Shown here: in pieces, positions 3,461 to 63,400 of the stretch | Position numbering within the stretch: the first letter of the stretch is position 1 | How the letters are laid out: every line of letters starts with the position of its first letter | Origin: Rhizaria sp. SCN 62-66 | Lineage: Eukaryota | Length of the DNA stretch: 64,000 nt | NCBI GenBank assembly: GCA_001724265.1 | Contig: MEDY01000017.1 | Location: 62,001 to 126,000 of the forward strand | Direction of reading: 5' to 3' | Made by a program: the position numbers and the translations under genes | Notes under the pieces: generated by a model | The model's database searches: none | What the model was told of the DNA's origin: nothing | The model's input: the letters and a program-made list of their open reading frames with translations, nothing else

Positions 3461-4798
3461 ATGCTTGCGCGACTCCAGAAGAGCTCCGCGCTGCTCCCGC
3501 GGCTCCTCCCCACGGTGGCACCAAGCCTCGCCGTGTCTTCCCTAGCTCTGACTGCTGCACCCATGCCAGCGCCATCTTTCTCTGGACTCCTGACTGGCGC
3601 CCGCGTGTTCTACACCAACAGCAGCTCGTCCGGCAGCAACTACGGCAACGGCAACACCAGCAGTGGTAGCAGCAACGGGCCTCGTCGTCCCAACGCTGGT
3701 CCCGGCGGCGGCCCCCGCCGTCCCCTCGGCGCCAGCCGCATGCCCCAGCCCGTCTCCCGACACCCCAGTCAGCAGCACCACGGCGGCGGCGGCGGCGGCT
3801 ATCAGCAGCAACAGCAGCAGCGCGGTTCGTCTGCGTCTCAGTCTGCGTCGTTCCCCGGAGTCGGCAGCCGCGAGCCCCCGCGGCCTTCCGCCGCCGGCGG
3901 CCGCTCTGGCGGCGTGGCGAACCCGCAGCTCGTGGAGCGCGACTACCGCGAGATGGGCCTGGACCTCACCCAATCTCTCCCTGCGAAGAAAGAGCTCGAC
4001 ATCGCGGCGCTGTTCGCGCGGTCTCGGCTGCACTCGTCGTTCGAGGCTCCTCCCGCGGAGGAGTCTTTCTTCGCGGACATGTCGGCGCACCGGCCGCTGT
4101 ACTTCGGTGGCACGCGTCGCTTGTTGGAACCCTCTGGCCGGCTGATCTCGTCGCACGCGATCTACATGGTGCGCACAGTGGACCCTGGTATCCTGGCGAT
4201 GGTTGACACGCTCACCACGCTCGACTACCAGACGAGCCAGGCGACGCAGCAGGTCACCACAGCGATTGTTGCCGCCGACGCGGACCGCGCTCACGTCGTC
4301 GATGTCAACGAAGAGACGGGGAAGATTAACTCCCGCACGATGATCCGGCTTAAGGGTGAGCCGTGGAAGTGGACCTCGGCCGTTTCCCTCAGTCAGATCG
4401 ACCGGGCCGCGATGGACGAGGCGGAGCAGCCCGCGGCCGATGCGGATCCGGAGGATTTGACCGTGGGGTCCGTCGTCGTCGCACGTTTCCGCTTCGGGAA
4501 GGCAAACCTGCTCGCGGAGAAGTTCCTGCTTGCGAACGGCGAGAAAGTGATGGGGATTGTCGATGACTTGAAGCTGATCAACGAGGCGACGTACGACGCC
4601 AAGGTGCGGGAGATGTTTGAGGCGAACCTGACTGAGGAGCAGCGCATGCAGCTTGAATTTGAGCGCAACTTTGATGAGAATATGACTCCGGAACAGATTG
4701 AGGAGAAGCTGCATGAGATGGGCATGACGGCGCCGGAGCACGAGCAGCGCGGGCCGAAGAAGCAGACCTGGGCACCGCGCAAGAATAAGGTGCTGTGA
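3461..4798 (+). CDS. Hypothetical protein with a probable mitochondrial targeting peptide
   Basis: First ATG at 3461 in ORF 3392..4798. The N-terminus MLARLQKSSALLPRLLPTVAPSLAVSSL is R/L/S-rich and lacks acidic residues. The C-terminal half looks globular. Ends TGA before an AT-rich spacer. Confidence 0.7.
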   Translation: MLARLQKSSALLPRLLPTVAPSLAVSSLALTAAPMPAPSFSGLLTGARVFYTNSSSSGSNYGNGNTSSGSSNGPRRPNAGPGGGPRRPLGASRMPQPVSRHPSQQHHGGGGGGYQQQQQQRGSSASQSASFPGVGSREPPRPSAAGGRSGGVANPQLVERDYREMGLDLTQSLPAKKELDIAALFARSRLHSSFEAPPAEESFFADMSAHRPLYFGGTRRLLEPSGRLISSHAIYMVRTVDPGILAMVDTLTTLDYQTSQATQQVTTAIVAADADRAHVVDVNEETGKINSRTMIRLKGEPWKWTSAVSLSQIDRAAMDEAEQPAADADPEDLTVGSVVVARFRFGKANLLAEKFLLANGEKVMGIVDDLKLINEATYDAKVREMFEANLTEEQRMQLEFERNFDENMTPEQIEEKLHEMGMTAPEHEQRGPKKQTWAPRKNKVL

Positions 4799-5516
4799 AG
4801 TGTGTGCGTGTGTGTGAAAAGAATGTTAGCAAACTTTTGTTAGCAAAGTTCGAACGAGAACCACAGCTTCAGCTGCAGCTTAGTTGTATTTATGCCGGCA
4901 TGGTCGAAGGCCGGAACAATAATAACATGATAGGGCCATATGCTCCCCTGATACAGAGTTAATACATACGTTTTATAGCCATATGTCTCAATTTCAAGTC
5001 ATACATGCATGGTTTGTTCACTCGCATCGCTTTGCTCACGGTCACGGTCAGCGTTGAGGCCCTTCCGCGGGTCACAAGTGCAAACTGACCTTTGACGGAT
5101 CAGTGCGGCGTACAACGACCAGCTGTGCGTTTAATATGCTGGGTCGTTAATTTTTTATGTGCCTTGCAAATTTTCTTCTGGTTTCTATTTCTTAATCTCT
5201 TCTATGCACCGAGAACAGTTTGGGATTCGGCCGACACCCGCATCATCGGGGCTTGGTCCCTGACCGCCTTGCATGTTCGTCTCTGCACAGCCTCTCACAT
5301 TCCAGGTGTTTGATTATTGAATTTATTTCCGTGCAGTTTGTGGTATCGGCGTTCCCGATTTTTCTTGCTTATTTCACACAGACTTGATTTGATCGCGCAT
5401 CAGGCCTGACAACCCAGCTTGGGCTCACCATCGCGCTCCGTGCTGCCTCGCTGCCTTTGCTCTGAGCTGCGCGCGCCGCCCCACCCGGCGTCGTTCTGAC
5501 GACCACATCCGTCGTT

Positions 5517-8500
5517 ATGTCCGACTCTGCCCACGCGGTCCCCGCGACCGCCACGGCAGCTGTTGCCGCGAAACCGCTGACAGCGCGCTCGCTCTCGTTC
5601 TCCCCCTCTGAGTCTGCCACCTCCGCCTCTGCAGCTGCCCACCACCCAGCTGCCGCGCCCTCGAACGCCGCGGTCGAGATCAAAGTCGGTCCGATGCTTG
5701 AGTCCGTTGCGGCGTCCCTCCCCGTTGCATACGTCCCGTTCCTGCCCGACTGGAAGGTGCTCAAAAAGGTCGTGAAAAAGCACGCGACCCGCTCGTCGTA
5801 CTCTGTGGCGCTCGAACACATCAATGCCGCGCTGCGCACCGCGGCCTCGTTCGCCGTGTTTGAGTTCCCGCGCATTACGGCCGCCGTCACGCTCGCCACG
5901 GGGCCCGCGCCGCCCTCGCAGGCTGATTTACAGGCTATTTGCGAGCCCGCGCTCATCTCACATGAACGCGCATTAGAGGCTCTCACATCCGCCGCTGCCG
6001 CCGCCGCTGCCTCCGCTGCCGCTGCCGCCGCCACCGCTGCTTCGGCCTCTGCTACTGTGAGCGCGGACTCAACCGTGCTGTCGCAGAGCTCGTCCCAGCT
6101 GCCCGCAGCCAGCACGGCGGCCGCCCCCAGTAGCGGCACGCTCTCGCTTGCAGTGCCAGGCTCCGGCTCCCCGACCTCATCGCTGCACGCCGCCACCGCC
6201 GCGGGTGCCGCCGCTGCTGCTGCTGAGCCCATGGGCGCGGTTAACAGCAGTCGCAGCGGCAGCGACGCGAACACGCCCCCACTCTCCCGCCCCGCTTCTT
6301 CCCCTTCCCCCGCCACCGCCACCACCGCCAACAACAACAACAACAACAACAATGGTCTTGCGCGGGTACACACGCCCCCGCGTGTCGCTGCCACCGGCAC
6401 CGGCACCGGCGCTGGCGCGGGCGCGTCTGCGGTTTCCGCGGCTGCCGCGTCGCCCCTGCTTTCGCTGTCCACCCCGGCTCTGGCCGCCCTCGTCGACGCC
6501 AGCGTCGGCGCTCACTCGCGCTGCCTCGCCTTCGCCTCGCTCCTCACCGCGACCACGGTCTCGCTCTCCCGCGCGCTGGCCCAGCTCGGACACGGGCTGG
6601 CCGCGGAGGGCGACGCGGCGGAGGCGGATGCGTTGGTGCGGGCGGGGTGGGACGCGCTGCCGGCCGCGGCCGACCTCGAGGCCGCCGTTGCCTCTCTCCA
6701 GCAGCAGCAGCAGCAGCAGCAAAAGGGTGGGAGGAGCACGCCTGGAGGCACGCACGCTGTCCGCGTCGGGTCTTTGCCGCCCACACCGCTGCCTCCCGCT
6801 CGCTCACAGTCTCAGCCGTACTCGCGCTCGCACGCGCAGCCTCTGACTGGCGAAGAGGACGACTCCACAGCTTCTGCTGTGACCAATCCGACCGCGGCTG
6901 CGCCCGTGACCGCGATGACCGACGCTGACCACCAGAGGCACCGCGACCCTTTCTCCCGCTTGCACACTCTCCTCGCGCCGCACGCGCGCGCTGCCCTGCG
7001 CTGCGCTGATTTGCACCGGCTCGAACTGCAGTTTCGCTCCAGCCGGTCTGCTGCCGCCGCCGCTGGGCCAGCGCCTTTGCTTCCGCCCTCCGCCGCCTCC
7101 TCTGCCGCCGCCGCCGCTTCCGCCGCCTCTGCTTCTAATAGTGGCGCCAGCGCCAATGGTGCGACTGCAGGGGGGACGCCGGTGTCCGGCACCACGTCGC
7201 CGTCGTCGCTGTCAGCCGGCGGCGACCGGGACTCCCCTGGCCATGCTCTAGCGAGCAACAGCGCCCGCGGCGGCAGCGCTGGCACGGGCACTGGCACAGA
7301 GTCTCCCTCCGCCGCCGCCGCTGCCGTCGTCCGCGGGCCGAGTCAGGGCCCCGCACCGGTGACGACGCTGTCGGTGCTGCGGCTGTCTAACGCCGCCGCC
7401 GCGGTGGACCGCACACACCGCGAGATGGAGCTCACGGCGGCCGCGGTGGAGGCAGCGCTCCTGTGTTCGCCCGTCCTCCCGCTCCCGGGCGCCAATACTG
7501 CTGTTGGCGCTGTCGTGACGCCGGGGAGCCTCGTCAACAACGGCGGGGGGCTCAACAGCGACGGCGCGGGTTTCAACGCTGCCTTGACGCCGCACACTGG
7601 CGCCGCGACTACGACTGCGCCTCAGGGCGCGGGCGATGTGTCGGAAGACAGTGCCGGGGAGAGCAGCGACGGCGGTGGCGATAGTGACGGCGGGGACAAG
7701 GCGGGGAAGAAAGGGAAGAAAAAGGAAAAGAAAAAGGAAAAGAAAGCCGCCAAGAAGGCCGCTAAAGCCGCCGCCGCCGCTGCTGCCGCTGCTGCCGCCG
7801 CTACCGCTGCTGCTGGTGCGGGTGTAAGCGGTAGAGCGGATGTTGCTGTGGACGTTGATCGTGACGGTGTGGGTACCAGAGACCGTGTTGCACACAGCTT
7901 CTCGGAGACCGAGTCCTCGATCACCACCGCCGCTGACTCACTCTCCTCAGATTCTTCCTATGCTGCTGCTGCGGCGGCGGCGGCGGGGGCATCGGCGTCG
8001 ATGGCCACCCTGGTGTCGCCTGCAGAGTCGTTCGCGTCCCCTGCCCCCGCCTCGTTACTATCGGCCTCCGCCGCGACCACCGCGGCGGCCCCCGTTGCCA
8101 CGGACGGCACTGGCACTGGCAGCGACGGCGACATTGCTGTTGCTGCTGCTGATGTCGATGCCGATGCCGATGGTGACGTGAGTGAGGCTGAGGAGACTCC
8201 GGAGGAGCGGGCCGCACGCAAAGCCGCTAAACAGGCGAAGAAGGCAGCCAAGCAAGCTGCGAAGGAGGCTGAGAAGGCTGAGAAGAAGAAGGCCAAGGCT
8301 GCCGCCGCCGCCGCCGCAGCCGCCGCTGCCAATGCGACTGCAACTGAAGAGGAGGAAAGTCCTGCAAGCGGCGAACTGACTGGCGCTGAGACCGAGGCTG
8401 CGAACGTCGCCGCTGTCGCTGCTGCCGCTGCTGTGGCTTCAGTTCTAGGCGACTCTTTGACTCGCACCGCTGGCACCGCTGCTTCTCTGCCTGCTGGTGC

Positions 8501-11316
8501 TGCTTCGGCCGGACAGGAAGAGAGTGAGGATGAGGTTGACGGCGGGGGTGACGACGATGGTAAGAAGAAGAAGAAAAAGAACAAGGACAAGAAGGACAAA
8601 GAGAAGAAAAAGGACAAGAAGAAGAACAAAGACAAGGACCGTGACAGCAGCAGCGACGACGACTCTGCGTCACAAACTTCCTCCGATTCCGTCGCTGATG
8701 CTACCGCTGTCAGTGGCCGTCGTGGTGATGCAGTATCTGGCGCCCCGTTGTCTGCGCCCAGTGTCTCCGGTCCCGTTCGTCCAGCGCGTCTTCAATCCAC
8801 CGCCTCGAATGCGGCGAATAATGTGGTGACTGACGAGCGCGCGCCTCTGCTGCGTGGGTCCGCGTCCTCTCTCTCGCTGTCACGCCGTGTGCCCGCGGCG
8901 AACGGCGGTGTCGGCGCCGGCGCAGGCGGTGGCTACGGGAGCAGCAGTCCTGACGACAGCGCGCTACATGACTCGCACGACCACCTCCACGACCTCCACC
9001 ATCACGACGACGACGATGACGACGGTGGGCTCGCGGCACACAGGCTCGGTTTGACTGGCGGTGCGGTGGTAGCGTCGCGTTCAGCCCGCGCCTCGCCGCT
9101 GCTTGCGCCCGGCAGCAACCGCGCCCGCCACGGGCCCGGCGTTCCCATGGCCTCCTCCACCGTTTCAGCCTACGCAGGCAGTGCGGCGCGCGCGGCGCTG
9201 GCGGGCACCAACGCGTGCGCCGCCGCGGCCGCGGGCCCCACGCGCTCGCTGGCGGCGATGACGTCCGCGGCCGTGACGTCCTCCTACGCGCGCGTGCGCA
9301 GTCTGCTGTCCGGCCCGCGGCTGTGGTTCCTGGTGCCGAATCTCGAGCACATGGCGCTGCAGACTGGGACGTCGTTCTCCGACCTGGCGTCGCGCGAGTC
9401 GGATATCGTCTTCGCTCTGTCCTCCTACGCCTCGCCGCTGACTCTCCTGGTCGCACAGGCCGCGGCGTTCCTCTGCGCTCTCAACGTCTTCGCTCTCCTC
9501 CCGTCCGCGGCGTTCGACGCCGTGGAGCGCGGGGCGGACCCTTTTTTCGGTCCTGTCGCCATCGCGCTGCTCTTCGCCGCGGCCGCGGCGGCGGTGCCTG
9601 CGACGCTCGCGGGCCTCGCGAAGGTCGGATACCGCGCCACGCTGCTCGCCGCGTGCGCTGTGGCGCTGCTGGCCAACGTGCTCTTCGTCGCCACGTCCGC
9701 CTCGGCAGTCACCGCAGCGGCCGAGTTCGAGGCTGACTTACTCACAACCTCCGCCGCCGCCGCTGCTGCGCCGCCTGTTGTGGAGCCGTCTGCAATGGCG
9801 CTGCCGCTTATGCTCACCGCGCTCGCTCTGCTAGGCCTGGCCTCCGGCGCGCTGCCACTGCTAGCGCACCGGTTGACCGTCGACCACCTACCGATCCACA
9901 CGCGCGGTGGCAAGGCTGTAGCGCTACAGCTGCTGCGGCGCGTGGCGCTGGCTGCGGCGCCCGTGCTGCTGGCCGTGCTGCTCATCACGCAGTGGGGCGT
10001 TGCGGGCGCGGGCGTCGAGGGCGCCATCACGCCTGCGGTCGCGCTGCCCGCCGCCGCCGCCGCCGCTACTGCGTCGCTCGCTGCGGGCGGAGCCGCGACG
10101 GTCGGCTCGGCGGTCACCAGTGTGGGCAGCGCGGTGCAGGGCGCGGTGTCGGGGCTGGAGCACGCGCTCATGCCGCCGCCGCCGGGGCTGACTGCGCCTG
10201 CTGCCGCTGCTGCTGCGCCTGCTGTCGATGCGGCGGCGGCGACGGTGACGGCTGCGGCGGTACTGACCGGCTCTGGCCCCGTGGCCGCAGCTTCTGTGGC
10301 GACGACGGCCGCGCCGGTGATGCTGGGCGGCGGCGGCGCGCTGAGCTGCGCGCTCATGGCGTTGCTGTGGCTGATTCTGCTGCTGGTGAGCGCATTTGCG
10401 TTCACGGAGCCCCCCGAGCAGGCGACTGGCGCTGAGGCCGCGCGGCTGCTGCTGTTGCCGGGCGCGGGGTCGCTCGGCGGCCGCGGCGGCGCCAGTGACG
10501 ACGGCGACAGCGGCGACGATAAGAAGGGCAAGAAGAAGCTTAAGAAGAAGAAGGAGAAGGAAGAGAAGAAGAAGCGCAAGCAAGAGGAGAAGCGCCGCCA
10601 GCAGCTCGAGCTTGAGCAACAACAACAACAGCAGCATGCGGCCAAGAGCGGCAAGGGTAAGGCTGATGCGGTGGATGCTTATGACGCGGACGCGGACCGT
10701 GACATTGAGGCCGGTTTGCCGTCGCGCACCGCCACCAGCACCACCGCCGCGCCCGCAGGCCACTCGAGCGACAGTGACAGCGACGACGACAATGATCACA
10801 ACACTCCTCTCGCGGTCGCCGGCTGTGCCGTCGAAGGACGGAACCAGGCAGGCGGCGAGCGGCGCCGCAGCAGCGCTAGCGGCAGCGGCAACACCGCTGC
10901 CACCGCGCCCGCTGCCATCACCACCACTGCGGCCGCGAACGGCAACGGCAATGGTGCGCACGGTGGGGGCGGCCGCGCCGGCACGCCTGTCGTGGGCGTC
11001 GATTCCCCGCTGGCGCCTCACGGACTCCCCAGTCTGCTCTACGGGGTGCGCGCGGCCGACATGCCGCTGTCGATCGCGCCCACGGGCTCCGTCGCCGGCG
11101 ACATTGCCCACGGCGGCGGTCGCTACGGTGCGTTGTCTGCCGCGTCATCGCACCAGTCATCGGCGCACTCGTCTGCGCATTCGTCGACGCACCCCGCGGC
11201 GGCCACGGCGGCGGCGGCGAGCGGCACCGTGCTGCTGTTGGGCAAGGACAGCAACTCGAACGCGCCGACGCACGCGCCCGGCGCGCCGCTGCTCATGTCC
11301 AGCGCTGTCATCACCG

Positions 11317-11376
<60 letters not shown>

Positions 11377-12272
11377 GCAGCGCGAGCGGTGCGGCGGCGG
11401 ACGCGGAGACCGCGCTGGGAACGGCGTACCTCGAGTTCCGTCCCGCCGCGCCGCTCCCGCCGCTGCCGCAGACACAGACGGCGGCGGCGCTGGCGACCGT
11501 GTTGCTGGGCCTCACACTGGGGTCCGCGGCGCTGACGCTGACGCTGCTGTCGGTGCCCGTGCTCGCCGTCGTGCACTTCGGCTGGACGCTGGTGGTCTCG
11601 GCGGGCGTGCTGGCACTGCTGGCCGTGGTGCAACTGCCGCAACCGTCGCTGCTCGCGTGGGCCGTCACCTCGGGCCGTCTATCGGACACGGCGGCGTTCC
11701 TCCTCGCGCAGCTCACGCTCGCGGGCGCGGCCGCCGTGCTCGCGCTGGCGCCCTTCGGCACGGCCGTCCCGCTCGCGCTCTACTCCGACGCCGCGGCCGC
11801 CGCGGGGCAGACAGTCGACGCGGGCGACCTTCTGACGCTCACACCGGACTTCGGCATTGGCCCGATCGTGTTCGTCAGCGCCGCGGCCGTGCTCGTCGGC
11901 GCGGCGGCCGTGCTGCGGGCCGTGGCGCGCACGTTCCTGGCGCAGCGCGATCACCCCGCGACGGCGGGCACGTGGCGCCGCGCGGATGTGATGTCCGCCG
12001 TGTTCACCTCGCTGGGCGCTGTTGTGGGCGCCTCCATTGCGGCGGCTGTCATGGCCAGCATCGAGGTGCCGTGGTCAGCGCTGGGCGTGATGAACGGCAA
12101 TCCTGCGGCGATCGTCGCTGCGGCGGGCTCGGATGTCGGCCCCGCGTGGCTGCTGCTCGCGACGTTCGCGCCGCTGCTTGCGCTCTCGGTGGTTATGCTG
12201 CTTGTCTCGCTTGTCACGCATGAGAAGCTTGCGACGCCGCCTGTGCACTCGATCATCCCGCACCAGCATTAA
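5517..12272 (+). CDS. SPX-MFS (PHT5/VPT-like) phosphate transporter-like protein with a degenerate SPX domain and large low-complexity insertions
   Basis: IKVGPMLE...VPFLPDWKVLKKVVKK resembles the SPX start (MKFGK...Y/F-xxYKxLKKxIK). Two bundles of hydrophobic helices follow. AFLCALNVFALLPSA, GYRATLL...LLANVLF and LAHRLTVDHLPIHTR resemble SPX-MFS transmembrane motifs. Ends TAA. Confidence 0.7.
11316..11372 (+). repeat. (GGC)n coding microsatellite, about 19 Gly
   Basis: GGC trinucleotide run with one GGT interruption, inside the SPX-MFS ORF. Confidence 0.9.
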
Positions 12273-12905: not shown

Positions 12906-14309
12906 TCAATCGATGTCGTCCGCAGCGCACGCCGCCTTGCCGCGCGCGCGCAACTCGTCCTCGGGACCCGCAGAAGCCGCAACGCCATCTGACTCCGGTC
13001 CAGACTCATCCTCCGAGTCCGAGACGATCGGCAGCGCCTTAGCTGGCGATTTGGCCGCCGCCGCCGCCGCAGCAGCAGCAGTCACCGAGGGCGGGGCGGT
13101 GGCGGGCGGCGCAGGGGACTTCGCTGGCGTCCCATTCACGCTCGCAGTCGAATGCGCGGGCTTGGCGGGCGTGCCGGTCTTCTTAGCCACCGCCGCCGCC
13201 GCCGCTGCTGTTCCAGTCTTGCCGGCAGCGCTCTTGTGGGCGGGCGAGGGCGGGGCGGCAGCGACGGCGAAGGCAGCTCCGGCCACGGGCGGCTGCTGCG
13301 GCTGCAGCGCGGCGGCAGGGATCTGCGCTCCCATAGCCGCATCTGCCGCGACGGCTGCGACGAGCGTCTCGGCCGCGGCGGCGCTGAGCCCCGTGGCGAG
13401 CGCGTTGAGCCGCGGGTAATGGGCCTCGCGGTCCTCACCCAGCGCGCGGACACAGAGCACGAGTCCCATCGCAGCGCGGGAAGCGCCAGGGCGGAGCTCG
13501 AGCGCGGTAGCGTAGTAGGCCAACGCGGCGGCAACGTTGCCTGCGCCCCCGAGCGAGTAGAGCACGTCGGCGTAGCGAATGTGCGTCGTCCAGGCCTCAG
13601 GGCGGAGCAGAAGCAGCTCCTCAAGCGACGTTTTGGCCTCGGGAAGCGCGTGGGCCATGATGTACAGGTCTGCGAGCTCGCTCCATGCCGCCGCGTCCTC
13701 GCCGTAGAGCGAGACGTGCGCGCTGAGCGCGGCGACGGCGTCGGAGAAGCGGCCCTGCATGCGGAGGTGCGCGGCGCGGCGGCGGCGGGCGGCCATGGCG
13801 GTGGCATCACGACGTGCAGAGCGGTCGTACCATTGAGCGGCCTCGGTCCACCGGTCCGCGGAGTCGTACACCAAAGCGCGCAGAGAGGCGACGCGCGCGG
13901 AAGAGCTAAAGCGGTGCTCGAGGGCCATGATGCACTCGTTGCGGAGCACGGGGAGCGCGGCGTCGATGGCGGCGACGCAGACTTGCTCGTATACGGACCA
14001 GATGTCGCGCGTCAGCAGAGTGACTGCGGAGGAGAAGAATGAGGACAAGTAGCGCGCCAGAGCCGGACGCGCCTGCTGGGCCTTGTACTCGGCAATGAGC
14101 GCAGTGCCGTGCTCGATCACTAGCAGAGGCTCGCGCAGGTGGCGCTTGCGGATGAGCTGGAGGAAGGTGAGTCGCGTCTGGATCGTGGCAGAAGAGTTCG
14201 GCTGCGAGACCAAGGGCGCGAGGCGCTCTGTGAGGACAGAGACGATGCTCGCATCGCTCACGTCGTCAAACTCCTCAGCCATTGACCTCTCGGAGCTGAG
14301 CAGTGCCAT
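12906..14309 (-). CDS. EMC2: ER membrane protein complex subunit 2 (TPR protein)
   Basis: DIWSVYEQVCVAAIDA...RFSSSARVASLRALVY...D, AWSELADLY, LEELLLLRP and RYADVLYSLGG match EMC2/TTC35. Ala/Pro-rich C-terminal tail. Ends TGA. Confidence 0.9.
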   Translation of the reverse strand: MALLSSERSMAEEFDDVSDASIVSVLTERLAPLVSQPNSSATIQTRLTFLQLIRKRHLREPLLVIEHGTALIAEYKAQQARPALARYLSSFFSSAVTLLTRDIWSVYEQVCVAAIDAALPVLRNECIMALEHRFSSSARVASLRALVYDSADRWTEAAQWYDRSARRDATAMAARRRRAAHLRMQGRFSDAVAALSAHVSLYGEDAAAWSELADLYIMAHALPEAKTSLEELLLLRPEAWTTHIRYADVLYSLGGAGNVAAALAYYATALELRPGASRAAMGLVLCVRALGEDREAHYPRLNALATGLSAAAAETLVAAVAADAAMGAQIPAAALQPQQPPVAGAAFAVAAAPPSPAHKSAAGKTGTAAAAAAVAKKTGTPAKPAHSTASVNGTPAKSPAPPATAPPSVTAAAAAAAAAKSPAKALPIVSDSEDESGPESDGVAASAGPEDELRARGKAACAADDID

Positions 14310-46848: not shown

Positions 46849-47527
46849 CACAGACACACTGGGAGATGTTAAGATGCGCAAACGTCGGAAACGGAAGACA
46901 TCGGTTGGGTGAGTTGAAGAGCATGCATTTGATAAAGAGCTGTTCATTGTGGTTTTACCACACTCATAGATAAAAAAATAAACTTGTCAGAAAATTAACT
47001 CAATAATGCAGTCAAACACAGAACCAATTTTACGAAGCAGGGACTGTGCACTTAGAAAGCTAGTCTGCAAAAAAGGAGCATCTCGCGACTTGGCTACGTC
47101 ACAACCCACAACCCTCTCGTCGCCTCACCGCTCGGTCGCTATTTTCAAGTTTAATCTCCTTTGGATCACTTAAGACACGAAATCAATCCTGATGGCTTGC
47201 GCCAAGGTTTACTATTCCTGCACAAAATGACTGAATGATCTTGCTGTATTCATTTCCCCCAGAAGATGCGCTGTATGACATAACTGGATCGATATAACTC
47301 CAATTTAACAGTGGATCACAGATCACGCTCCTGTCGTGCGCGTCGGCCATGTCCGGCAAAGTACCAACATGCGCACTGCATTTAGCGCACACATGCATAT
47401 TTCCCCTTAAATTAAGTCAGCACAAACTCATCATCCATAGGTATACACAATTCAATTCAAGATCAGCCGCGTATACATTTGATCTTCACGCTTGTTCGAA
47501 AAAGAGAGCAAGAGGCTCTTCATCTGT

Positions 47528-51644: not shown

Positions 51645-53843
51645 TTATTTAGATGGTTTCGCTGCACGCAATGAACGCGTCGTTAAATTGACAAGCTGGT
51701 CCCGGATAGAGCTTGACAATGAGGCGCTTTCATTCGCGTTTCCTAACGACTGGAGGACTGGCTGAATATCGTTCGTCACCGCAGCCGTCGCAGCGAAATC
51801 GTACACCCGACTGCCGAAGAAGTTCACCTCAATATCAAGAAGATACGCCGCAACTGCCTGCTCCGGCGAGCCTGTCCCCATCTTCAGCAGCGCCAGCACT
51901 TGGCCGCCGCCGCGCAGCAGCGCCGGAACGTCTTTGTGTTCCGCGGCGAGAAGCTGCCGCAGCACCCAGTAGAGCGCGGCGACGAGGTCCAGCTCGCCGG
52001 CGTCGACCGCGGCCGCGACGTCCGCCTCGGAGCGCGGCAGCAGCTTCTGCAGCAGCGCCACCACGGCCGCGACGTCGGCCTCTTTGAGCGCGCCGCGCTG
52101 TCGCGGCAGGAGCAGGCCTAGGAAGGACAGCGCGTGCAGCAGCGCGCCGCCGTCGGCCGCCGTGGCAACCACGCGCAGCGCCAGCGCGGCGGCCTCGGCC
52201 GCGCCGGGCGCCGAGGCCAGGTCGTCGCGCGCGGCCTCGGCGGCGGCCCACGGCATGCCCGCCGCGCCCGGGTCCAGCTGCCCCAGCGTCTGCAGCAGCA
52301 CGTACACGAATACGCGGTGCGCGCGCGCCGCGGCGGCGTTCACGGCGCCGTCCGCCGCGGGCGCAGGCGGCTTGTGCGCGAGCGCGAGCAGCGCGGGCAG
52401 CACGGCCACCAAGGGCTTGCTGGCGAAGCAGCCGAGCGGGCGGTCGGGCGCGCGCTCCGTGCTCATCGAGACGACGCCGCTGCAGGCGTTGCTGCGCATC
52501 GCCGCGCGGCGCCCGGCCACGCGCAGCGCGTTAAAGCGCAGCAGCACGGCCGCGGCGACGGCGTGCGGCCACGCGCGCGGCTCGGCGTCGCTGCCGCCTA
52601 GCGCACGCTCGAGCCACGCGGAGGCCAGGACCTCGCCGTCGCCGCCGGCGTGACCCAGCGCGGCGCCGGAGTGCGCGAGGAAGGCGGCGCAGAAGGCGTC
52701 GCAGCTGCACCACAGCAACGCGTCGTCCGGGTGCGGAAACAGGGGCGCTGCGGCCGGCGCCGTGGCGGCCGCGCTACCTGATTTGGCCGCGACGGCTGCC
52801 GCTGCAGTGAGCGGGCGGTGTGGCAGCGGAGCGAAGCGCACGAGCGCGGCCATAGCAGCGGGGCGCGGCGTGCCATTGCGGGTGTCCGCAGGGAGGGCGC
52901 TGCCGCGAATAGGTACAACGGGCCGCGCGCCGGGGCCGGCGATAATGCGCTGCGTCTCCTGTATGTTGATCAGACCGCTTCCGATAGCGCGGTTGAAGCG
53001 GTTTGGCACAGTGACGTCCTGGAACCGCCCTAGGCCGGGGAAAGCCCCGCGGTTGACGGGGACGAGTGGGCCGACGTTGCTAAGCATCTGGGGCACGGGG
53101 ACGGCGCAGGATTGCTTGAGGCGCACGGGGGCGGCGTCCACGGGGACGGCGGTGGCGGTGTCGTCATTGTCATCAGCTTCGGTCTCGGTGTCAGCAGCCG
53201 CCGTCAGCGCCGCACCATCGGCCGCGGCGACTGCGGCCGCGGCATCTGGCGTGACGGCGACCGCGGCGGCGGCGGCGGGCGTGATCAGGTAGCGAGCATC
53301 GTCGCCGGTCATGAGCGCGTCGGCCAGCTGCGCCAGGCGCGCGAATACGAAGCCCGCCGCCGGCCGCGTCAGGTCGAGCCGCGACGGCGTGGGCCGCGTT
53401 GGTGTGGGCCGCGTTGGCGCTGTGTCGGTGTAGGTGTCGGTTTCGGCGACCTGGGTAGGGGAAAAGAAGCGCGAGAGATGGGCTGCGAGGGGCTTGACAA
53501 CGCGCATAAGTTGGCAGTGCACGGTGAGAACCAGGCGAAAACGCGCGAGCTGGAACAGCGCCTCGGCTGCAGCCACGCGCGTCAGGTCGTCGTCACTCTC
53601 GAGGAACGGGAGCACGGCCGCGGCCACGTCGTGCGCGGCGAAGAAGCAGCTGATGTCCTTGTCGAGAGCCGCAGTTGCGTCGGAAACGCGGCCATCACGC
53701 GCAGTGGTGTCAAGACTAACACGGTACCGGCCGAGCTTGCGCAGCGCAGCGGGCAACAACCCAAGCGGGGTGAGGGCAGCGGTGCTTTCAGCAGCAGTGA
53801 GCGCAGACACAGCAGCTTCGAGGTTCAGCAACGACTTCGTCAT
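51645..53843 (-). CDS. Hypothetical protein, probably alpha-helical (ARM/HEAT-like) repeats
   Basis: Long GC-rich ORF between AT-rich spacers. ATG at 53843 (MTKSLLNLE). Amphipathic helices such as VLPFLESDDDLTRVAAAEALFQLAR. Ends TAA. Confidence 0.6.
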   Translation of the reverse strand: MTKSLLNLEAAVSALTAAESTAALTPLGLLPAALRKLGRYRVSLDTTARDGRVSDATAALDKDISCFFAAHDVAAAVLPFLESDDDLTRVAAAEALFQLARFRLVLTVHCQLMRVVKPLAAHLSRFFSPTQVAETDTYTDTAPTRPTPTRPTPSRLDLTRPAAGFVFARLAQLADALMTGDDARYLITPAAAAAVAVTPDAAAAVAAADGAALTAAADTETEADDNDDTATAVPVDAAPVRLKQSCAVPVPQMLSNVGPLVPVNRGAFPGLGRFQDVTVPNRFNRAIGSGLINIQETQRIIAGPGARPVVPIRGSALPADTRNGTPRPAAMAALVRFAPLPHRPLTAAAAVAAKSGSAAATAPAAAPLFPHPDDALLWCSCDAFCAAFLAHSGAALGHAGGDGEVLASAWLERALGGSDAEPRAWPHAVAAAVLLRFNALRVAGRRAAMRSNACSGVVSMSTERAPDRPLGCFASKPLVAVLPALLALAHKPPAPAADGAVNAAAARAHRVFVYVLLQTLGQLDPGAAGMPWAAAEAARDDLASAPGAAEAAALALRVVATAADGGALLHALSFLGLLLPRQRGALKEADVAAVVALLQKLLPRSEADVAAAVDAGELDLVAALYWVLRQLLAAEHKDVPALLRGGGQVLALLKMGTGSPEQAVAAYLLDIEVNFFGSRVYDFAATAAVTNDIQPVLQSLGNANESASLSSSIRDQLVNLTTRSLRAAKPSK

Positions 53844-54658: not shown

Positions 54659-57600
54659 TCATTGCGAAAGCCAAGGCTGCGGCTGCTGATGACGGCGGTG
54701 GTGAAGCTCGCTCCCACTTCCCGACGGCACTGACGACGACACCACCGACACTGCAGAGTCCCCCGAGCCAGCGCCCGCGCCGGCGCCATGGCTCGCACCC
54801 GCACTCGACACAGAGCCAGCGCCCGTAGTACCCACGCCCGCAGTACCAGCGCCCACGCCCGTGCCCGCGCCCACGCTCGTGTTCGAGATGAAGCAAGCAC
54901 TCGGCCTCGCGGCAGCGTTGGAGACAAGCACGGGAGCAGTGGGAACCGAGATGGGGGCAGCGACCGAGCCGACTGTGGGGAGAGATGACAGGATCGCGGC
55001 TGACGAAAGCGGCGCGGGCGGCGTCGCAGGCGCGCGCTGCAGCGGCGACGGCGGCCGTTTCGCGCGCACACTCCACTGCCCCAGCCCCGTCCCCAGTCCG
55101 AGTCCGTGTCCGTGCTGCGGCGACTGAGTGTTAGAGTGCGGGTTCGACTGCGATGGCGCCTGGAGCAGCGACTGCGCGCGGCCGAGAACGAGCGCGCCCG
55201 AGGTGTCAGCGACGGGCGGCAACTGCACAAGGTCCGGGATGACGAACCTGCGCTCGCGGTCACCAGGCACCATAGCTTCGCTACATTCGCTGTCGCTGCC
55301 GCCATCGCTGTCGTTGTCGCGTTCGCAGTCGGCGGCGTCGCCGTCGCTGTCGCCGCGGTGTGACACGACCCCACTGCCGCCACTGCTGCGGCGTGCACTT
55401 GCGCTTTTACTCATGCTAGCGCACGCACGGGCGCCGCGGGCAGAGGCGCGGCAGGGCGTTGCAGCTGCGCCGGGGAGCGTGCGGGCGCCGCCGATGCTCG
55501 TGGAGTGAGCCGCGGAGTTGCTGTTGCAGCTGTTTGCGGCGGCGGTGAACACAGGACGCGGCGGCGTGCAGACACCGAGGAAACCACCCGCACCCGCAGT
55601 ACCTGTGGTACCCGCGACCCCATGAGTACCAGCGACGGGGGGCGTGCCCTTAGTCGTGGGTACCGCAGGAGCGACCTTCGGCGTGCCACCTGTCCCGGTG
55701 ACCGTGGGTGCGCCACTCTTGGCCTTGGGCACAGCAGCGGAGGCGGCGACGGCGGCGGCAAAGGCGGGCGGAGCGATCAGAGTCGGCAGCGGCAAAGCAA
55801 CGTCTTCATACCCACTTACCATGCTGGCGCGGCCCCGACCGAGATTGGGGGAGCTGCCCGCAGACACAGAGCCGACACCCGCCCCAGCTCCAGCGCTGGT
55901 GCCGGAGCTCAGGCTCGTGTTTGTGGCGAAAAGCAGAGGCACGGGCAGGGGCCGCGCGCGCTTGCTGGCGCTGGCTTCCTCGACACCGCCCGCAGCGGTG
56001 GCCACACCGCCCTTGCTCACGGTCACTGCAGTGAGGGCGGCGGCCAGAGCGCGGTCTTCCTTGGCGTCCGCGTCGTCCTCATCTTCGTCACTATTATCGG
56101 TTTTGTTGTCGTTCTTGTCATCGCCAGCTGTGCTGCCGCGGGAGAGACGGCGTTGCTGGCGCTGGCGCTGCTGCAACAGCTGCTGCTGCTCCGCAAAGAG
56201 TTGCCCCAGTGACAGTGTCGGCGAGTGGCGACGCTTCAACCCACTCGCGTTCGCGCTCACGCTCGCACTTGCAGGCGCACTGGCACTGGCAGTCGCAGTC
56301 GACTTAGCGCCGGCGCCGGTGCCAATGGGCGTGCTCATGTTGCTCGCGCTCGCCGCGGCGCGCTGGCAGTGGGCGCGGTAGGCAGAGTTGGCGGCGTTGA
56401 TGTGCAGCAAAGCGGCCATGGCGGCGGCAACGCTCTCAACGCCGTCTTTGGCGTCGCCGCTGTCACTGTGGTCGCTCGAGACTGAGTCCTCGTCGACGGC
56501 GCTCTTGTTGCGGAGAGTGGTGTTGTCGTCGTCGCTGTCGAGGTCGTTGAGCCCAGAGCCAGAGCCTGAGACCGCGCGAGCAGTGCCAATCTGACTGCTC
56601 TTGCTCTTAGCCTTGCCTTGGCCCTTGTCTTTGCCAGTGGCAGAGGCGGCGGCTGCGTTGGTAAAGGGGGCCTGAGCACGGGCAGAGAGCAGAGAGCGCG
56701 CGTCTTCAGGAAGCTGCAGCGTCATCATCGACTTGTTGGTCGACTTGCTGCTTTTAGGCGCAGTTACGGCGTCAGAGGCAGCGGCTGGGGACGAGGCAGG
56801 AGTCACCTTGACAGTCAGCCCACTGCGGCTGCCGGTGTTGTTGTTGTTCTCATCGTCGTCTTCACTGTCGCAGAGCTCGATGATCGTCCCACTCGAAGGC
56901 CTCGCACCACCTTCATTGTGACGCCTCGCGCCCTCACTGTGACCGTAGGCGTGGCCGTGCGCGTAACCGTGAGCAGTAGCGTCGTCGTCGTCGCAGTGCG
57001 TCAGAGCAGCGCGCACGACAGACTGCACGCCGTGCAAAGGGCACCACGCGCGGGCCGGAACCCAGGCCGAGCAGCACCGCGTCTGCGCAGACGAAGTGGT
57101 GAAGCGCTCATGCAGAGTGTTGTTTCTAACGCCGCCCGCGGTGGAGTCGTGGGTGAGCAGAGGAGGCGCATACGTCAGCGCTGGAATCTCATAGGTCAGC
57201 GCGGGCACGCTTCCGGGGGCGTGCTTGTCACCGCTCCCTTTGCCGCGAGTGACGAGTGCGGAGCTCAAGTCGAGCGCAAAATCGGCGTCAGAGTCGGAGG
57301 GCGCGTAGGTGAGTGCGGGGATTTCGTAAGTAAGCGCGGGCAGCGAGTTGTCGGCCGCGGCCGGGACGGAGGTAACGAACGCGGAGTGTGTGGCGTTCCA
57401 ACGGGGCGCCGCGTCCTCCGTGTCGGCGTTAAGGCCGTTGGTGCGGTGCGCGGCGGCGGCGTGGGGGTCGTACGTTGTCAAGTAGCGCGACTGCAATGAT
57501 AAGCTGCTGTCGGTCTAAGCGACGGTCATGGGAAAGCTCTGTGTGCTGGGGACGACGCCGGCGCCGGCTGGGCTGTGGTGGAGTGCCGCAGCAGAGTTGT

Positions 57601-57991
57601 GCCGAGTCGTGGAGAAGGCGTAGTCATCGCTGTCAAGCATGGAGGCGCAGGACAGCGGAGCGGGCGCGGCAGCACGCGGGAACGACTGCAACGACGCTGA
57701 CACAGGTGCATGCATTGGCGCGGGCACATGAGCAGGCCACGAGGATGACGCAGAGAAGGAGGAAGCTGCAGTGACGGGAGCGGCGTGACGGACGAGGTCA
57801 GATGCGGCAGCGACGCTGCGGGACGTGAGCTCGTGCCACTGGTGGGGCGGGAAGCGAGCGCTGGCAGCAGCGTGTGGACCGTGGTAGGCGGTGGACGCGT
57901 TGGCGGCGTTGGGGATGGCGGAGGCTGCGGCGGCGGCGGACTTGGTAGTGCCGCTCTGCTGGGGGACAGACCAGAACCCCGGCGCGCTCAT
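54659..57991 (-). CDS. Low-complexity hypothetical protein (about 1110 aa) with one in-frame TAG at 57515-57517
   Basis: ORFs 57515..58237 and 54659..57496 share a frame and are separated by a single TAG. Likely ATG at 57991 (MSAPGFWSVPQQ). Contains a duplicated PALTYEIPALTYAP, a Cys/His cluster and a SIM-like IIELCDSEDDDE. Ends TGA. Confidence 0.62.
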
Positions 57992-58334
57992 GGGCAGACC
58001 GTGGGAAATAGTCTGTCGCGGATTGTGATTAAAACTGAAACAAGAAACAGACATGCGTGGTGCACCTGTTGTGAGCAAAAATTGGTTCAATTGACGTTGG
58101 TGGCGATCACGGGACTTCGAACTTCTTAGGGCGCGAGAGGACACGTTTTCCAGTCGACTCTCGTCGATTCGAGAATGCAGCACCCAAAAACGATTTGTGG
58201 TGGAAACTAATCCGAGACATGCACGGTACTTTTTCACTCTATTGCATAATAATAATAACTGATTCTATGTATTCAAGTTTCATACTATCTATTTCTATGT
58301 GTTAAGTATGAATGTGAGCTATTTTCAGGCTTCA

Positions 58335-60231
58335 TTAAATGACATTGCTGTGGCCGAGGGTACAGTTGGCTGTTGCTGGACGCACAAAGACCTGCTGCAG
58401 GATCAACCCTTCCCCACCGACCACACTTGCACTCGCAGTCGCAGCTGCTTTAGTAAGCGGTGCAACCACGCCTGCGGAGGCAAGCACCCACTCAGGCAGC
58501 ACGTGCTTCGTAGCCACAAATCCTTCCTTCCGCGCGCACTCCGCAATGAGCGTTTCCACAGTTGCACTCCGCGGCGGATGCGTCAACACGAAGACATCCC
58601 ACCGCTGAGCCTCTGAATCGTCGCTATCGTCACTGTAAACGCGCAACTCTTCAGCACGCGCTGCTTGGTTGTTGTGTGGCAAAGTGAACAGCGCCGAGAC
58701 CGTGGCGAAAAGGGACCCGACTGCGGCAGCATCGTACACAACATCCGACGCTACAACCAAATCCGGACGGGAGAAGCGAGTGAGAATGGCTCCCGCAGAT
58801 GCTGTGCCGTTGACAGAAATAGGGGCGGAGCCCACGGCCGTTGCACCGCTCGCAAGACGATGTTGCAGCTGTCGGACACCCCTGTGGTCGGTACTACTTT
58901 CACAGATGCCGTTGTCTGCGCAATCGTCGGCGTCAGTGCGGTTGCAACGGCACTGCGTCAATGCCGCCGGTGAGATCAGCGTGTTTCCGCCTAGATATCC
59001 CGGTTCAGGGTCACTGCGCGAAGCCGGAGTGGTCCACGTGAGCGGAAACGCAAAGTAGTCGATACTCACATTCGTGCCCCTTTTAGCGTTCGCATTAGCG
59101 CTGAGAATGCGCTGTTGCAACACTGCCGCATTGCGTGCTGCTAAGGCAAGCGCCTGTGCGTTTTTGTCAGTAACAGCCAACACGTGCCTCGGATTTGTGA
59201 CACTCACACTTGCATTTGCATCCGCTGAATCTGTGGTAGCTGATGCTGTCAAGAGCTCCGCAACAGCGGCAGAAAGCAGACCTGCGCCGGCGCCAAGCTC
59301 CACACAGCGCAGCCCGCGGCGACGCAGCAGCGGCCCGTTCAGCGGCAGCGGTGACCGAGGCACGCTACTGTCGTTATTGAAGGTGGTATTGGAGGATATG
59401 AGAGGAGCGAGCGCACATAGCAGCCAATGAGCACCAGCACGCGCGGGCTGCCATAGTGCGAGCCCGGACGACTCGGTCGTGAATACGCCCGCGGGCAGGT
59501 GCTGAAGCTGCACAGTCACGCTTGTGATGGCCGCGCTCGAGCCACTGAGCGCGTGAGACGCGACCGTGGCAGTGTTAGTGTTGCTTTGAGGGCTCTGAGC
59601 AGAACTATGCACGGACAGTGGGGGCGCAAAGCCGGGGAGCGGGCGTAGCGGGAATGTGTGCGCATGCAGTGCCAGTGGTAGTCCTGCAAAGACATCGGTC
59701 TCACCTGTGCCAAGACTCGATGCTTCTGTTGCTGCTGCAGTTGCAGTTGCATTCGTCGTTGTTGTATTGGCGGCGGCCGGAGTCCAATACAGTAACGCAC
59801 CGTGAGACAGACCGAGCTCAGCAAGCGACTGCATGTAGGAAGAGGCGGGAAATAACGGTGGCATTAACCCCACGGGAGCGGAGAGCGCGCGCAAAGCAGC
59901 GGGCACGTGCGCAGGTGCGCGCGTTGAGAGATGAGAGTTCGTGAGATGACCAGCAGAGACGTCGACACTTACGGCTGCAGGGTCGACGAAGTCGTCGCCT
60001 CCTGGAGGCACACGCCACAGGGTCGCGCCGGGCGACACATGGGCAATCTTTTCAAGAAGCTATACAAGCAAGATAGGTGATCTGGTGAGGTAGGCGCGCA
60101 GAAAATAACAATAGTGCAAGCTGATATTAGATAGTGTGACGTCGTACCTTTGTCCGGAGTTCCCCGAGTGTGATCTCAGGTGTCACGTCAAACCTAAAAG
60201 TGCCAGTTTGACCTTGAATTCGAATAATCAT
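58335..60231 (-). CDS. Npl4-type ubiquitin-like domain fused to a METTL21/family-16 class I lysine methyltransferase, two exons
   Basis: Exon 1 (60231-60148) encodes MIIRIQGQTGTFRFDVTPEITLGELRTK. Exon 2 has SLAELGLSHGALLY, then SGLALWQPARAGAHWL, CVELGAGAGLLS, VTD, NA, LTW and DLVVASDVVYD. Ends TAA. Confidence 0.78.
60060..60147 (-). other. Spliceosomal intron (88 nt, phase 0)
   Basis: GTACGA...GTATAG, joins an ATG-bearing exon to ORF 58335..60038, which lacks an ATG start. Confidence 0.78.
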
Positions 60232-60467
60232 TGAAACAATGAATAACTCGCGTTTGACGATCAAATCACGCCACAAAAACAGGTTTTGTTTTCGCGCTAA
60301 GCCAGCTGATCAGCGACTCCGCGCCACCACAAAAACGAGCGCGCTTCCAAACGAGTCCAGATACCGGCTTAAAATCACAATGAAGCACAGCGAAAAGACA
60401 ATATCAAAAGCATATGTATTCGTTCTATCTAATTATAACAATGAATGACATGAATAAGCAAGTTGGC

Positions 60468-63400
60468 TCAGACGAGAGGGCGCTGGCGAGAGCCGGGCCG
60501 CGAGTCGAGTGGCGTGTTACCGCCGCTGGCACCGGCGCTCTTGGGAGGCGAGCCGGCGTTGGAGCCGCCCGCTGAGCCCACTACAGAGCCAGCCATCGAC
60601 CACTGTGCGGACCCACCAGCTGAGGCCGCACCGCGGTTGAGCTTACCACGGTTTACGGCGCGCATGTTGCGCATGAAGCCGCGTTTGCTTCCGCCGGGAG
60701 TCGTCGTGCCATCGCCGCCACTCCCCGCGCTGCCGGGGCCGCCTGCGGGATGTCCCAAGTGCGCATAAGGCCCCGGACTTGTACCGCGCTCAAGCGCCAG
60801 CGCAGCGGCGCCCGCGACGGGTACGCCGACAGCCGCAAAAAGCGCCGCCATCGCCGGCCCCGCGCCTGCGCCCGCGACGGCTTGCTCAGCCATGGCCGAC
60901 ACGCCCGCGCGCAACTGTGCCAGCGCAGCCTCTGCCGCGTCCGCGCGCGAGCGCTCCGCCTCAGCCTTCCCGCGCAGCCCCGCGCACGCGACTTCAAGCG
61001 CGTCCGCGCGCGCGCCGAGTGCGGCCTCGCGCGCGCGCGCTTCGGCGACGACTGACTCGGCCGTTGTGAGCTCGCGCTGTAACGCGCTTGTATGCTCGCC
61101 AGCGCGCGCTGCGGCCGCGGAGTGGCGCTCATGCAGTCGCTGTTCCGCGCCGCGCTGCGCGTCGAGCGTTGCGACAAGCCGCAGCCGTAGCTCCGAGGCC
61201 TCACGAGCAAGCTCGCCGCAGCCTTCGTGCACTGCAACAGCTTCCGCTAAGTCCAACGTCGCAGTGTCCAGCCGTGCGAGCGCATCAGCGCGCTCGGCCT
61301 CGGCCTTCTCCAGCGCGCGCTGCTGCAGCCGCCGCGCCGCCGCCGCCGCCGCGAGATCGCGCTCGAGCCCCGCAGCCGTGGCCGTGGCTTGTGCCGCCGC
61401 CGAGCGCACCGCGGCAGCCTCTGCTTCGATGCTCTCCAACCGCGCCGCTGCGGCCTCCGCAACGACGCGCGCGGCGACGGCGGCGTCGCGCTCTTCCTCC
61501 GCCGCGCGCTGCCGGGCCTGCGCCTCCGCAACCGCCGCGCGCAGCTCCTCAGCGGCCGCCTCGGACGCCGCGGCCGCCGCGCGCGCGCGATCCGCTGTCT
61601 GCTCGTGTTTCCGGGCCTCCGCCTCGAGGGCGAGCACTTGCGCGCCGCCGGTGGACTGGGAGAGCTTCGCCAGACGTGCCTTGGCGGCGCGCGTGGTGCG
61701 CTGCTCTTCGGCAAGCGTCTCAGCCAGTGCAGAGCCTTCAGCACGTAAAGCAGACTGCGCTTGTGCGAAGATAGCGAGGTCGCGACGAAGAGTCTCTGCC
61801 TCAGCCTCGGTCTGTTTCGCGCGGGTCATCGCCCGCGCAAGCTCAGCGCTATACAGAGCAAGAAAAAAAAAGGGAAACAAATACATATTAGGACATTAGT
61901 AAAATACATTGTCAATACTCAATTTTGTGATCACCAATACCGAAAATTAAGCGGAAGTTGCAGAATTGAATTGAGTAATAGATAAACGTACCTGAGATGC
62001 GAGCGTGCGTCTTCAGTGCGCGCAACACGGTCCTTAAGCGCTGCAGTCTCGCGCATCAGTTCCGCGCGCTCACGGCCCCACGCCGCTGCAGCAAACGCGT
62101 GCGCTTGTGCGCTGCCGCCCCCAGCAGCTGCTGCCGCCGCAGCAGCAGCGGCAGAGGGGGATGTCAGTCCGCTCATCGTCGCACGGCTCGACCGTGCAGA
62201 GGCACCGGCCCCGCTAAACCCCGCGGCGCCGTACGCGGCGGCCTCGGCGAGCGCGGCCTCGAGCGACAGCGCGGAGGGACTGAGGCTGGCCAGCGGCGCT
62301 GCGCGTTCGCGGAGGTCGACGGAGCCCTGCCGCCGGTACGCCGCGGCGGCGGCCACGGCGCGGGGGCTGATCGCGCGCGTCAGACCGCTGTTGGAGCCTG
62401 CGCCCGAGCCGGAGCCGGAGGAGGCACTGGTGGCGCTGCCGGCCGCGGCAGCGGCGGCGGCGGCGGCGGCTAGAGTGAGGCGCTCGCTTGCTGTGGGCAT
62501 GAGGTTGTGACCGTTGCCGTGGCCATGGCCGTGGCCGTGGGCAGTAGAGTGAGTGTGCGAAGGGGCCGACACGGTTGAAGCGCGCGCGAGAGAGCGGTTC
62601 TGACCAAAATATCCCTGCTGCTGTGTCTGTTGCTGCTGTTGCTGCTGCGGGTGCGCATGAAAGGCATGTGTGCTGACACCCGCTCTGCCAGCATTACTAC
62701 CATTGCGCACGGCGGTGTTGTCGTCCTCCTCTCCTTCGCCACCGCCGCCGCCGCCACCACCACCGCCGGCACCGATCATACGTGTCGCCGGCGCCGCAGT
62801 GTGCGAAATTGTCGCCTGCCCTTTCACCACCGCGTTTCCGCCGTGCGTCTGCGTGTACGCGTACAGCGGGGGTTGGGTTTGGGCGCCGAGCGCGGCCGTA
62901 ACTGGCGGGGATGCGGTCAGCGGGGAGCGGGCTTGAGTCTGGGCGAGTAGCAGCGCTTGGGGCTGGGTTTGCGAGAGCGCTTGTGCTTGCAGCTCGTCTT
63001 GCCCCTGCATTTGCCCTTGAGACGGAGACTGATACTGCGACTGCGCTTGAGTCTGGGGCTGCTCTTGTGGCTGCCCCTGCGAGTGCAGGTGCAAGTGGCC
63101 CTGTCCCGGGGATGTCGCAACAGCTCCTGCAGCAGCAGCAGCGGCAGGATCGCGAGTCGGCTCACCAGTGGCCGTGGCAGTCGCAGGGTTATCGGCCGCG
63201 GTTGTCCCAGTGGCTGCGTCAGAGTCTGATAGCGACGACACTGCCAGCGCTGCCAATCCCTGAGGAGACACAAGCATCGGCCCAGGCACCGCAGAGGCCA
63301 TGACGCTCACATTCACGTTCACATTCGCCTTCGTACTTGTGCTGGGGACAGTGGCGCTGCTAGTATTAGCGGTCGCGTTTGAGGCGTCAGTGACGGGCCT

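Follow-up and report, generated by a model that had tools for sequence, protein, structure and literature searches.

UAG-only nuclear codes

Nuclear codes in which UAG alone is reassigned were first shown for the rhizarian exLh (Sainouroidea) and for Iotanema spirale (Panek et al. 2017, PMC5304391). In Iotanema, an anaerobic fornicate known from its transcriptome only, UAG encodes glutamine: 119 gene ends comprise 104 UAA, 15 UGA and no UAG, and 204 UAG codons are spread over 126 genes, making up ~8% of glutamine codons (PMC5304391). The layout of this code is one once listed as NCBI code 15 (PMC5304391). In exLh the same codon encodes leucine, with 71 gene ends divided between UAA (56) and UGA (15) and none at UAG; its 384 UAG codons lie in 71 genes, and in proteasome genes UAG is the commonest leucine codon (PMC5304391). 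Further UAG-only cases are Scotinosphaera (serine), phyllopharyngean ciliates (leucine, and glutamine twice) and Protocruzia tuzeti (glutamine) (PMC11687900).

Here we analyse a 64,000-nucleotide stretch of contig MEDY01000017.1 (assembly GCA_001724265.1, deposited as Rhizaria sp. SCN 62-66; positions 62,001 to 126,000, forward strand), hereafter the window, in which six TAG triplets lie in frame within GC-rich coding sequence, five of them in a very long VPS13-like gene. The nuclear code of this organism has very probably lost UAG as a terminator and uses it as a sense codon, with glutamine the likeliest meaning, leaving UAA and UGA as the only stops. The features of reading frames and gene ends by which Iotanema and exLh are recognised are all found in the window: UAG is in frame in coding sequence and closes none of the 16 visible gene ends, and UAA and UGA end genes and occur in no exon. 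The code would be a further member of this already described UAG-only type, perhaps still at an early or disputed point of its reassignment.

As in Iotanema, UAG lies in frame, UAA and UGA end all genes, glutamine is favoured, and UAG is a minor codon, which in the window would make up ~1% of glutamine codons (6/562). In contrast to Iotanema, the window represents a GC-rich (0.62) genome with a mitochondrial-type lipoyl synthase, its UAG is much rarer, its commonest stop is TGA rather than TAA, and glutamine is here a best guess. With exLh it shares the reassignment of UAG alone (0/71 gene ends there, 0/16 in the window) and a UAG that is scarcer in strongly biased genes; homologues at the second in-frame TAG, however, carry glutamine or glutamate and never leucine. 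In the window UAG is decoupled from UAA as it is in the UAG-only ciliates and Scotinosphaera, whereas its 62% G+C, its GTACG introns of 99-214 nucleotides (nt) and its long proteins rich in alanine strike us as unlike those of ciliates. Condylostoma, karyorelicts and Blastocrithidia also read a stop codon inside genes, and the C that follows five of the six in-frame TAGs in the window may point to a context effect. There, however, the same codon ends genes, whereas in the window TAG closes none of 16 and neither UAA nor UGA is ever in frame in an exon.

In-frame TAG codons within coding sequence

The in-frame TAGs are located as follows.

TAG 1: 34114..34116, minus strand; residue 123 of P0001, inside the chorein-N domain; followed by C
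TAG 2: 33946..33948, minus strand; residue 179, inside the chorein-N domain; followed by C
TAG 3: 30568..30570, minus strand; residue 1305; followed by C
TAG 4: 28657..28659, minus strand; residue 1942, third unit of CAGCTG-CAGTTG-TAGCTA; followed by C
TAG 5: 26641..26643, minus strand; residue 2614; followed by C
TAG 6: 57515..57517, minus strand; in a second gene, 54659..58054, ~540 nt into a GC-rich coding block; followed by A

Within 60 nt on either side of these TAGs the G+C content (GC) is 0.53-0.71, with coding periodicity on both flanks, and TAGs 1 and 2 fall in aligned columns of the chorein domain. In the second gene, GC rises from 0.43 to 0.72 near 58000, and in one continuous frame GC at third codon positions (GC3) is 0.72 upstream of TAG 6 and 0.76 downstream. 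The exons of the refined gene models, 18,164 codons in all, contain these six TAGs and no internal TAA or TGA, an in-frame TAG frequency of ~1 per 3,000 codons. The remaining TAGs of extended open reading frames (ORFs) lie in AT-richer leaders upstream of likely starts (7 in 408 leader codons). Within the window, the TAG flanks have no paralogous copies beyond chance matches of 10-18 nt.

Reading through TAG gives an uninterrupted ORF of 5,111 codons at 19273..34608 (minus strand), which ends in TGA. The VPS13-like gene itself (19273..34482, minus strand) comprises 5,069 codons plus TGA, with one 99-nt intron and the five TAGs. Under the standard code the ORF is split into abutting pieces of 2,455, 671, 636 and 1,125 amino acids (aa), all in the same frame. 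Public ORF calls for this contig end at the TAGs: P0003 (122 aa) stops at TAG 1, and P0002 starts at GTG and stops at TAG 3. They were thus made with a standard or bacterial table.

The N-terminus of the protein matches Pfam VPS13_N at 27 bits, below the curated cut-off of 80, and ATG2_CAD. A profile of the N-terminal domain with three remote homologues matches Chaetomium VPS13 (6cbc_A, E=3.7e-4), human ATG2A (E=0.0026), VPS13C and VPS13A. A HMMER search with the N-terminal 400 aa returned just the window's own two fragments and three remote matches, with no close orthologue. A word-index search with residues 78-480, covering shorter proteins and scoring 8,000 candidates, recovered the window's own fragments only, and alanine-rich words may have displaced true relatives in it. 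The concentration of TAGs in this gene (five of the six; GC3 0.52 vs ~0.77 elsewhere) is significant by Fisher's test (p = 0.008), and CAA, TTG and GAA are also used much more in it than in neighbouring genes.

The probable amino acid assigned to UAG

The evidence on the residue comes from remote homologues, to which two of the TAG sites can be aligned. The column of TAG 2 holds glutamine in P0004, P0005 and Chaetomium VPS13, glutamate in human VPS13A and VPS13C, and leucine in none of the five. The repeat around TAG 4, CAGCTG-CAGTTG-TAGCTA, suggests a C-to-T change in a glutamine codon. Glutamine is therefore favoured as our best guess from the alignments and the repeat, with glutamate and leucine possible; serine is conceivable as well, and nothing in the window favours it.

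Gene ends and the context of UAG

The window holds 17 genes, of which 16 end within it. In the text, a gene end given as a single number is the last base of the stop on the plus strand and the lowest base of the reverse-complement codon on the minus strand.

4796..4798, plus strand: TGA stop of gene 3461..4798, no family match; GC 0.56 before and 0.45 after
12270..12272, plus strand: TAA stop of gene 5517..12272, a low-complexity membrane-like protein of 2,251 aa; GC 0.67 before and 0.36 after
12906..12908, minus strand: TGA stop of the EMC2/TPR-like gene 12906..14309
16975..16977, plus strand: TAA stop of the SET-domain gene 14656..16977
17208..17210, minus strand: TGA stop of the BMT5-like methyltransferase gene 17208..18860
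19273-19275, minus strand: TGA stop of the VPS13-like gene 19273..34482
34802..34804, minus strand: TAA stop of the HECT E3 ligase gene 34802..42448, directly past the last HECT residue
44518..44520, plus strand: TGA stop of the BART-domain gene 42955..44520
45946..45948, minus strand: TAA stop of gene 45946..46947, a secreted-looking protein with no family match
47528..47530, minus strand: TGA stop of the two-exon gene 47528..48793
49797..49799, minus strand: TAA stop of the lipoyl synthase gene (exon 2 49797..50837, intron 50838..51051, exon 1 51052..51246)
51645..51647, minus strand: TAA stop of gene 51645..53843, no family match
54659..54661, minus strand: TGA stop of gene 54659..58054, a low-complexity protein
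58335..58337, minus strand: TAA stop of the Methyltransf_16-like gene; 58335..60059, presumably with a further exon upstream
60468..60470, minus strand: TGA stop of the coiled-coil gene 60468..61886
61931..61933, minus strand: TGA stop of gene 61931..64000, whose 5' end lies beyond the window

An earlier sequence-only reading of the window had counted 15 gene ends without a TAG, and each of the 15 is indeed a stop of the type it had named (8 TGA, 7 TAA). We add a sixteenth, the TGA at 61931-61933 (minus strand), which brings the tally to 9 TGA, 7 TAA and 0 TAG; the 17th gene, Utp14 (3..2990, minus strand), leaves the window before its stop and is outside the count. All listed stops close long ORFs with coding-type GC periodicity, and at each of the 16 GC drops across the stop, from 0.52-0.73 in the preceding 150 nt to 0.30-0.47 in the following 150 nt. 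No TAG lies close to any C-terminus. The ORF ends are identical whether TAG is taken as stop or as sense, which makes the list independent of the hypothesis and the tally free of circularity.

In intergenic DNA (9,073 nt, both strands) TAG accounts for 158 of 820 stop triplets (19.3%), a share at which the chance of no TAG end is P(0/16) = 0.033, or P(0/15) = 0.040. As a control within the window, the next in-frame stop triplet 3' of the real stops is TAG in 3/15 cases; at the sixteenth end there is none within 150 nt. The tally taken alone fits the loss of UAG as a terminator and could not establish it, as it exceeds chance only marginally. The sequence-only reading had rightly cautioned that the sample is small, and had treated the tally as largely independent of the VPS13 evidence. 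With this we agree: the six in-frame TAGs are separate positive evidence, and the UAG-alone code is supported mainly by evidence other than the gene ends. Where the missing terminal TAG really counts is in arguing against a double role of UAG, as sense codon and as terminator.

Several observations weigh against a complete loss of UAG termination with assignment to glutamine. In-frame TAG occurs ~26-fold less often than expected from position-specific base frequencies (6 observed, 154 expected), and the six sense TAGs lie in two genes only, five of them in one, so that 15/17 genes carry none; exLh uses UAG heavily, whereas six codons in 17 genes is far rarer than in either exLh or Iotanema. 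C follows 5/6 sense TAGs, against a frequency of C at codon position 1 of 0.25 (binomial P = 0.005, a post hoc test). C after a stop is the weakest, or leakiest, termination context in eukaryotes. This bias also fits read-through, and it may reflect a context effect on UAG decoding. The gene ends number only 16, with p ~0.03, which is not significant if the natural TAG share is ~10%, as it is in some standard-code genomes; at that share 0/16 is expected ~19% of the time, or about once in five. Finally, the seven homologues differ among themselves at the position of TAG 1 (N, E, S, Q, L, L, V), two of them carrying leucine.

These points bear most directly on the main rival, which we nevertheless consider improbable: an ambiguous code in which UAG is sense inside genes, perhaps in contexts like UAG-C, and still terminates some genes elsewhere, in the manner of the context-dependent stops of Condylostoma or Blastocrithidia. 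The C after sense TAGs, set beside the base after real stops (purine in 12/16, C in 2/16), the extreme rarity of in-frame TAG, and a tally that excludes a 19% terminal share at p = 0.033 only, would all suit such a code. Against it stand the complete lack of TAG among the 16 ends, a sample in which a low share could go unseen, and the VPS13-like protein, which needs efficient reading of five consecutive TAGs; this is hard to square with appreciable termination at UAG. Inefficient read-through of the VPS13-like gene was also considered and rejected: with five leaky stops in a row, hardly any protein would reach full length, so decoding must be efficient.

The TAA of the gene ending at 58335 is directly followed by an in-frame TGA, forming a tandem stop (58332-58337, minus strand).

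Introns of the window

Four introns were recognised, all of which start with GTACG and measure 88-214 nt; the three whose GC was measured (0.31-0.45) are AT-richer than the exons.

34257-34355, minus strand: 99-nt intron of the VPS13-like gene; a multiple of three, stop-free, reads through in frame
48074-48247, minus strand: 174-nt intron, GTACGT...CGCAG, GC 0.31; holds an in-frame TAA at 48122-48124
50838-51051, minus strand: 214-nt intron of the lipoyl synthase gene
60060-60147, minus strand: 88-nt intron of the Methyltransf_16-like gene, GTACGA...TATAG; its final TAG, at 60060-60062, serves as 3' splice site and not as a codon

These introns bear on a second, very unlikely explanation: a standard code, with the in-frame TAGs hidden in introns that escaped recognition or edited out of the RNA, and with the lack of TAG at 16 ends due to chance. 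One TAG of an ORF extension, at 60060-60062, is indeed the 3' end of an intron, the 99-nt intron at 34257-34355 is stop-free and in frame, so introns of this kind do exist here, and P(0/16) is just 0.03-0.19, depending on the TAG share assumed. The six TAGs, however, have GC-rich, periodic sequence on both sides, and TAGs 1 and 2 lie within aligned chorein columns. All six fall outside introns, and none has a frame-compatible GTACG donor upstream, while 4/4 recognised introns start with this motif. Six separate special events would be required, all affecting TAG and never TAA or TGA.

Within 400 nt upstream, an otherwise unexplained GTACG occurs only for TAG 3, and an intron was therefore tried and rejected at this site. 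The GTACG is 107 nt upstream, with CTAAC just before the TAG, but the segment of 110 nt breaks the frame and is GC-rich, and no downstream AG mends the frame.

In the Methyltransf_16-like gene (58335-60182, minus strand), coding-like sequence is present upstream of the first ATG and starts just past the 3' TAG of the intron.

Integrity of the VPS13-like gene

It is scarcely plausible that the code is standard and the VPS13-like ORF a decaying pseudogene or the product of assembly errors. The gene does have an odd codon-position profile, with GC at positions 1, 2 and 3 of 0.64/0.60/0.52 vs ~0.68/0.5/0.77 in its neighbours, and beyond the N-terminal ~200 aa the 5,069-aa protein has no family match. 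Its 15 kb, however, contain no TAA, TGA or frameshift in 5,069 codons. Random single-base nonsense changes from the gene's own codons would yield TAG in 42-45% of cases, giving P(5 of 5 TAG) = 0.013-0.019, and a second gene carries an in-frame TAG too.

UAA and UGA as terminators

The sequence-only reading had taken UAA to be a working stop at the C-termini of the HECT protein and lipoyl synthase, and both ends bear this out. In the former, the profile aligns over positions 22-305 of 306 to residues 2262-2571 of 2572, with TAA directly at the domain end. Lipoyl synthase terminates at TAA after ...KATAL, and its closest relative, P0008 (83% identity), ends alike in ...TATAL. The sole in-frame TAA of the window, at 48122, sits in the 174-nt AT-rich intron. 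UGA closes nine genes, each at a GC drop, and is never in frame within the 18,164 codons.

A code in which UAA and UAG both encode glutamine and UGA is the sole stop (UAR=Gln, NCBI table 6 type) has nothing in its favour in the window beyond the in-frame TAGs themselves and can be dismissed, given TAA at 7/16 ends with GC falling right after each, its position exactly at the HECT domain and lipoyl synthase ends, and an in-frame TAA that is intronic and never exonic. It is these TAA ends, two of them at recognised C-termini, together with the intronic location of the sole in-frame TAA, that set the UAG-alone code apart from UAR=Gln. The earlier conclusion in favour of UAG alone stands, with the evidence weighted differently from what it had implied: the tally (p ~0.03-0.04) contributes little by itself.

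Mechanism, relatives and significance

By analogy with known cases (PMC5304391), loss of UAG termination with retention of UAA would involve a tRNA with anticodon CUA, which would read UAG and not UAA, and an eRF1 with weakened recognition of a third-position G. The rarity of UAG and its position mostly before C may be signs that the reassignment is recent or that eRF1 continues to compete for the codon. An eRF1 gene is not present among the window's 17 genes (Pfam), and no tRNA gene was found in the window by ARAGORN or Rfam.

The affinity of the organism was approached through two of its proteins. A search with the HECT protein gave top matches of just 40% identity in scattered taxa. The protein Atlas yielded no signal as to taxon. 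Among the matches listed for lipoyl synthase, relatives reach 79-83% identity and the best named ones 64-67%. We built a quick single-gene tree of 44 rows hand-picked from the 120 listed matches: the 16 best (15 matches and the window's own ORF call) and 28 that were named or source-labelled. In this tree, midpoint-rooted for drawing, the window and 10 rows group together (Shimodaira-Hasegawa-like approximate likelihood ratio test, SH-aLRT, 98) within a 21-row set (SH-aLRT 96) that holds three chlorarachniophytes and one MMETSP row grouping with them. This provides a lead towards Rhizaria, and not a placement. A scan of genome contigs for lipoyl synthase DNA returned bacterial and archaeal lipA loci only, at <=58% identity.

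One reading that we put forward tentatively, and regard as rather doubtful, is that the window comes from a lineage whose variant code has so far been overlooked, possibly a rhizarian, caught early in the capture of UAG: gone from gene ends, the codon would be re-entering mostly a weakly biased gene, and almost only before C, where eRF1 competes least well. If true, this would provide a natural snapshot of the intermediate stage debated by codon-capture and ambiguous-intermediate models.

Reassignments that separate UAG from UAA are described in a handful of eukaryotic lineages (PMC5304391, PMC11687900) and demonstrate that the two codons are distinguishable to eRF1 and the tRNA pool. None of the UAG-only cases found in the literature could be linked to this organism. 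Another independent example, from a GC-rich genome, would be informative about the origin of such codes, especially with UAG still so rare and context-biased here. In practical terms, standard-code gene prediction truncates or splits the proteins of this organism, and its public proteins are probably cut wherever TAG occurs.

Gene content of the window

The window is part of a eukaryotic nuclear genome that is GC-rich, compact and intron-poor. Its mean G+C is 62%, with ~0.65 in coding DNA vs 0.45 in intergenic DNA, and the 17 genes are densely packed on both strands with AT-richer spacers in between. Pfam families were assigned to Utp14, an EMC2-like TPR protein, a SET-domain protein, a BMT5-like methyltransferase, a very long protein with a VPS13/ATG2-type N-terminus, a HECT E3 ligase, a BART-domain protein, lipoyl synthase and a Methyltransf_16 protein. 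The products of the remaining genes, which have no family match, are alanine-rich and of low complexity.

The spacers between genes were screened for further genes and no convincing one was found. Spacer ORFs closed by TAG were rejected as genes, being either AT-rich without periodicity or antisense to real exons. An Rfam scan of the window gave no family at gathering score.

Long low-complexity tracts are present in the genes 54659-58054 and 61931-64000 (both minus strand), and include a duplicated PALTYEIPALTYAP motif, poly-Q, His-Gly runs and poly-Gly. In the gene 61931-64000, CAA accounts for 35/76 glutamine codons, unlike in the neighbouring genes.

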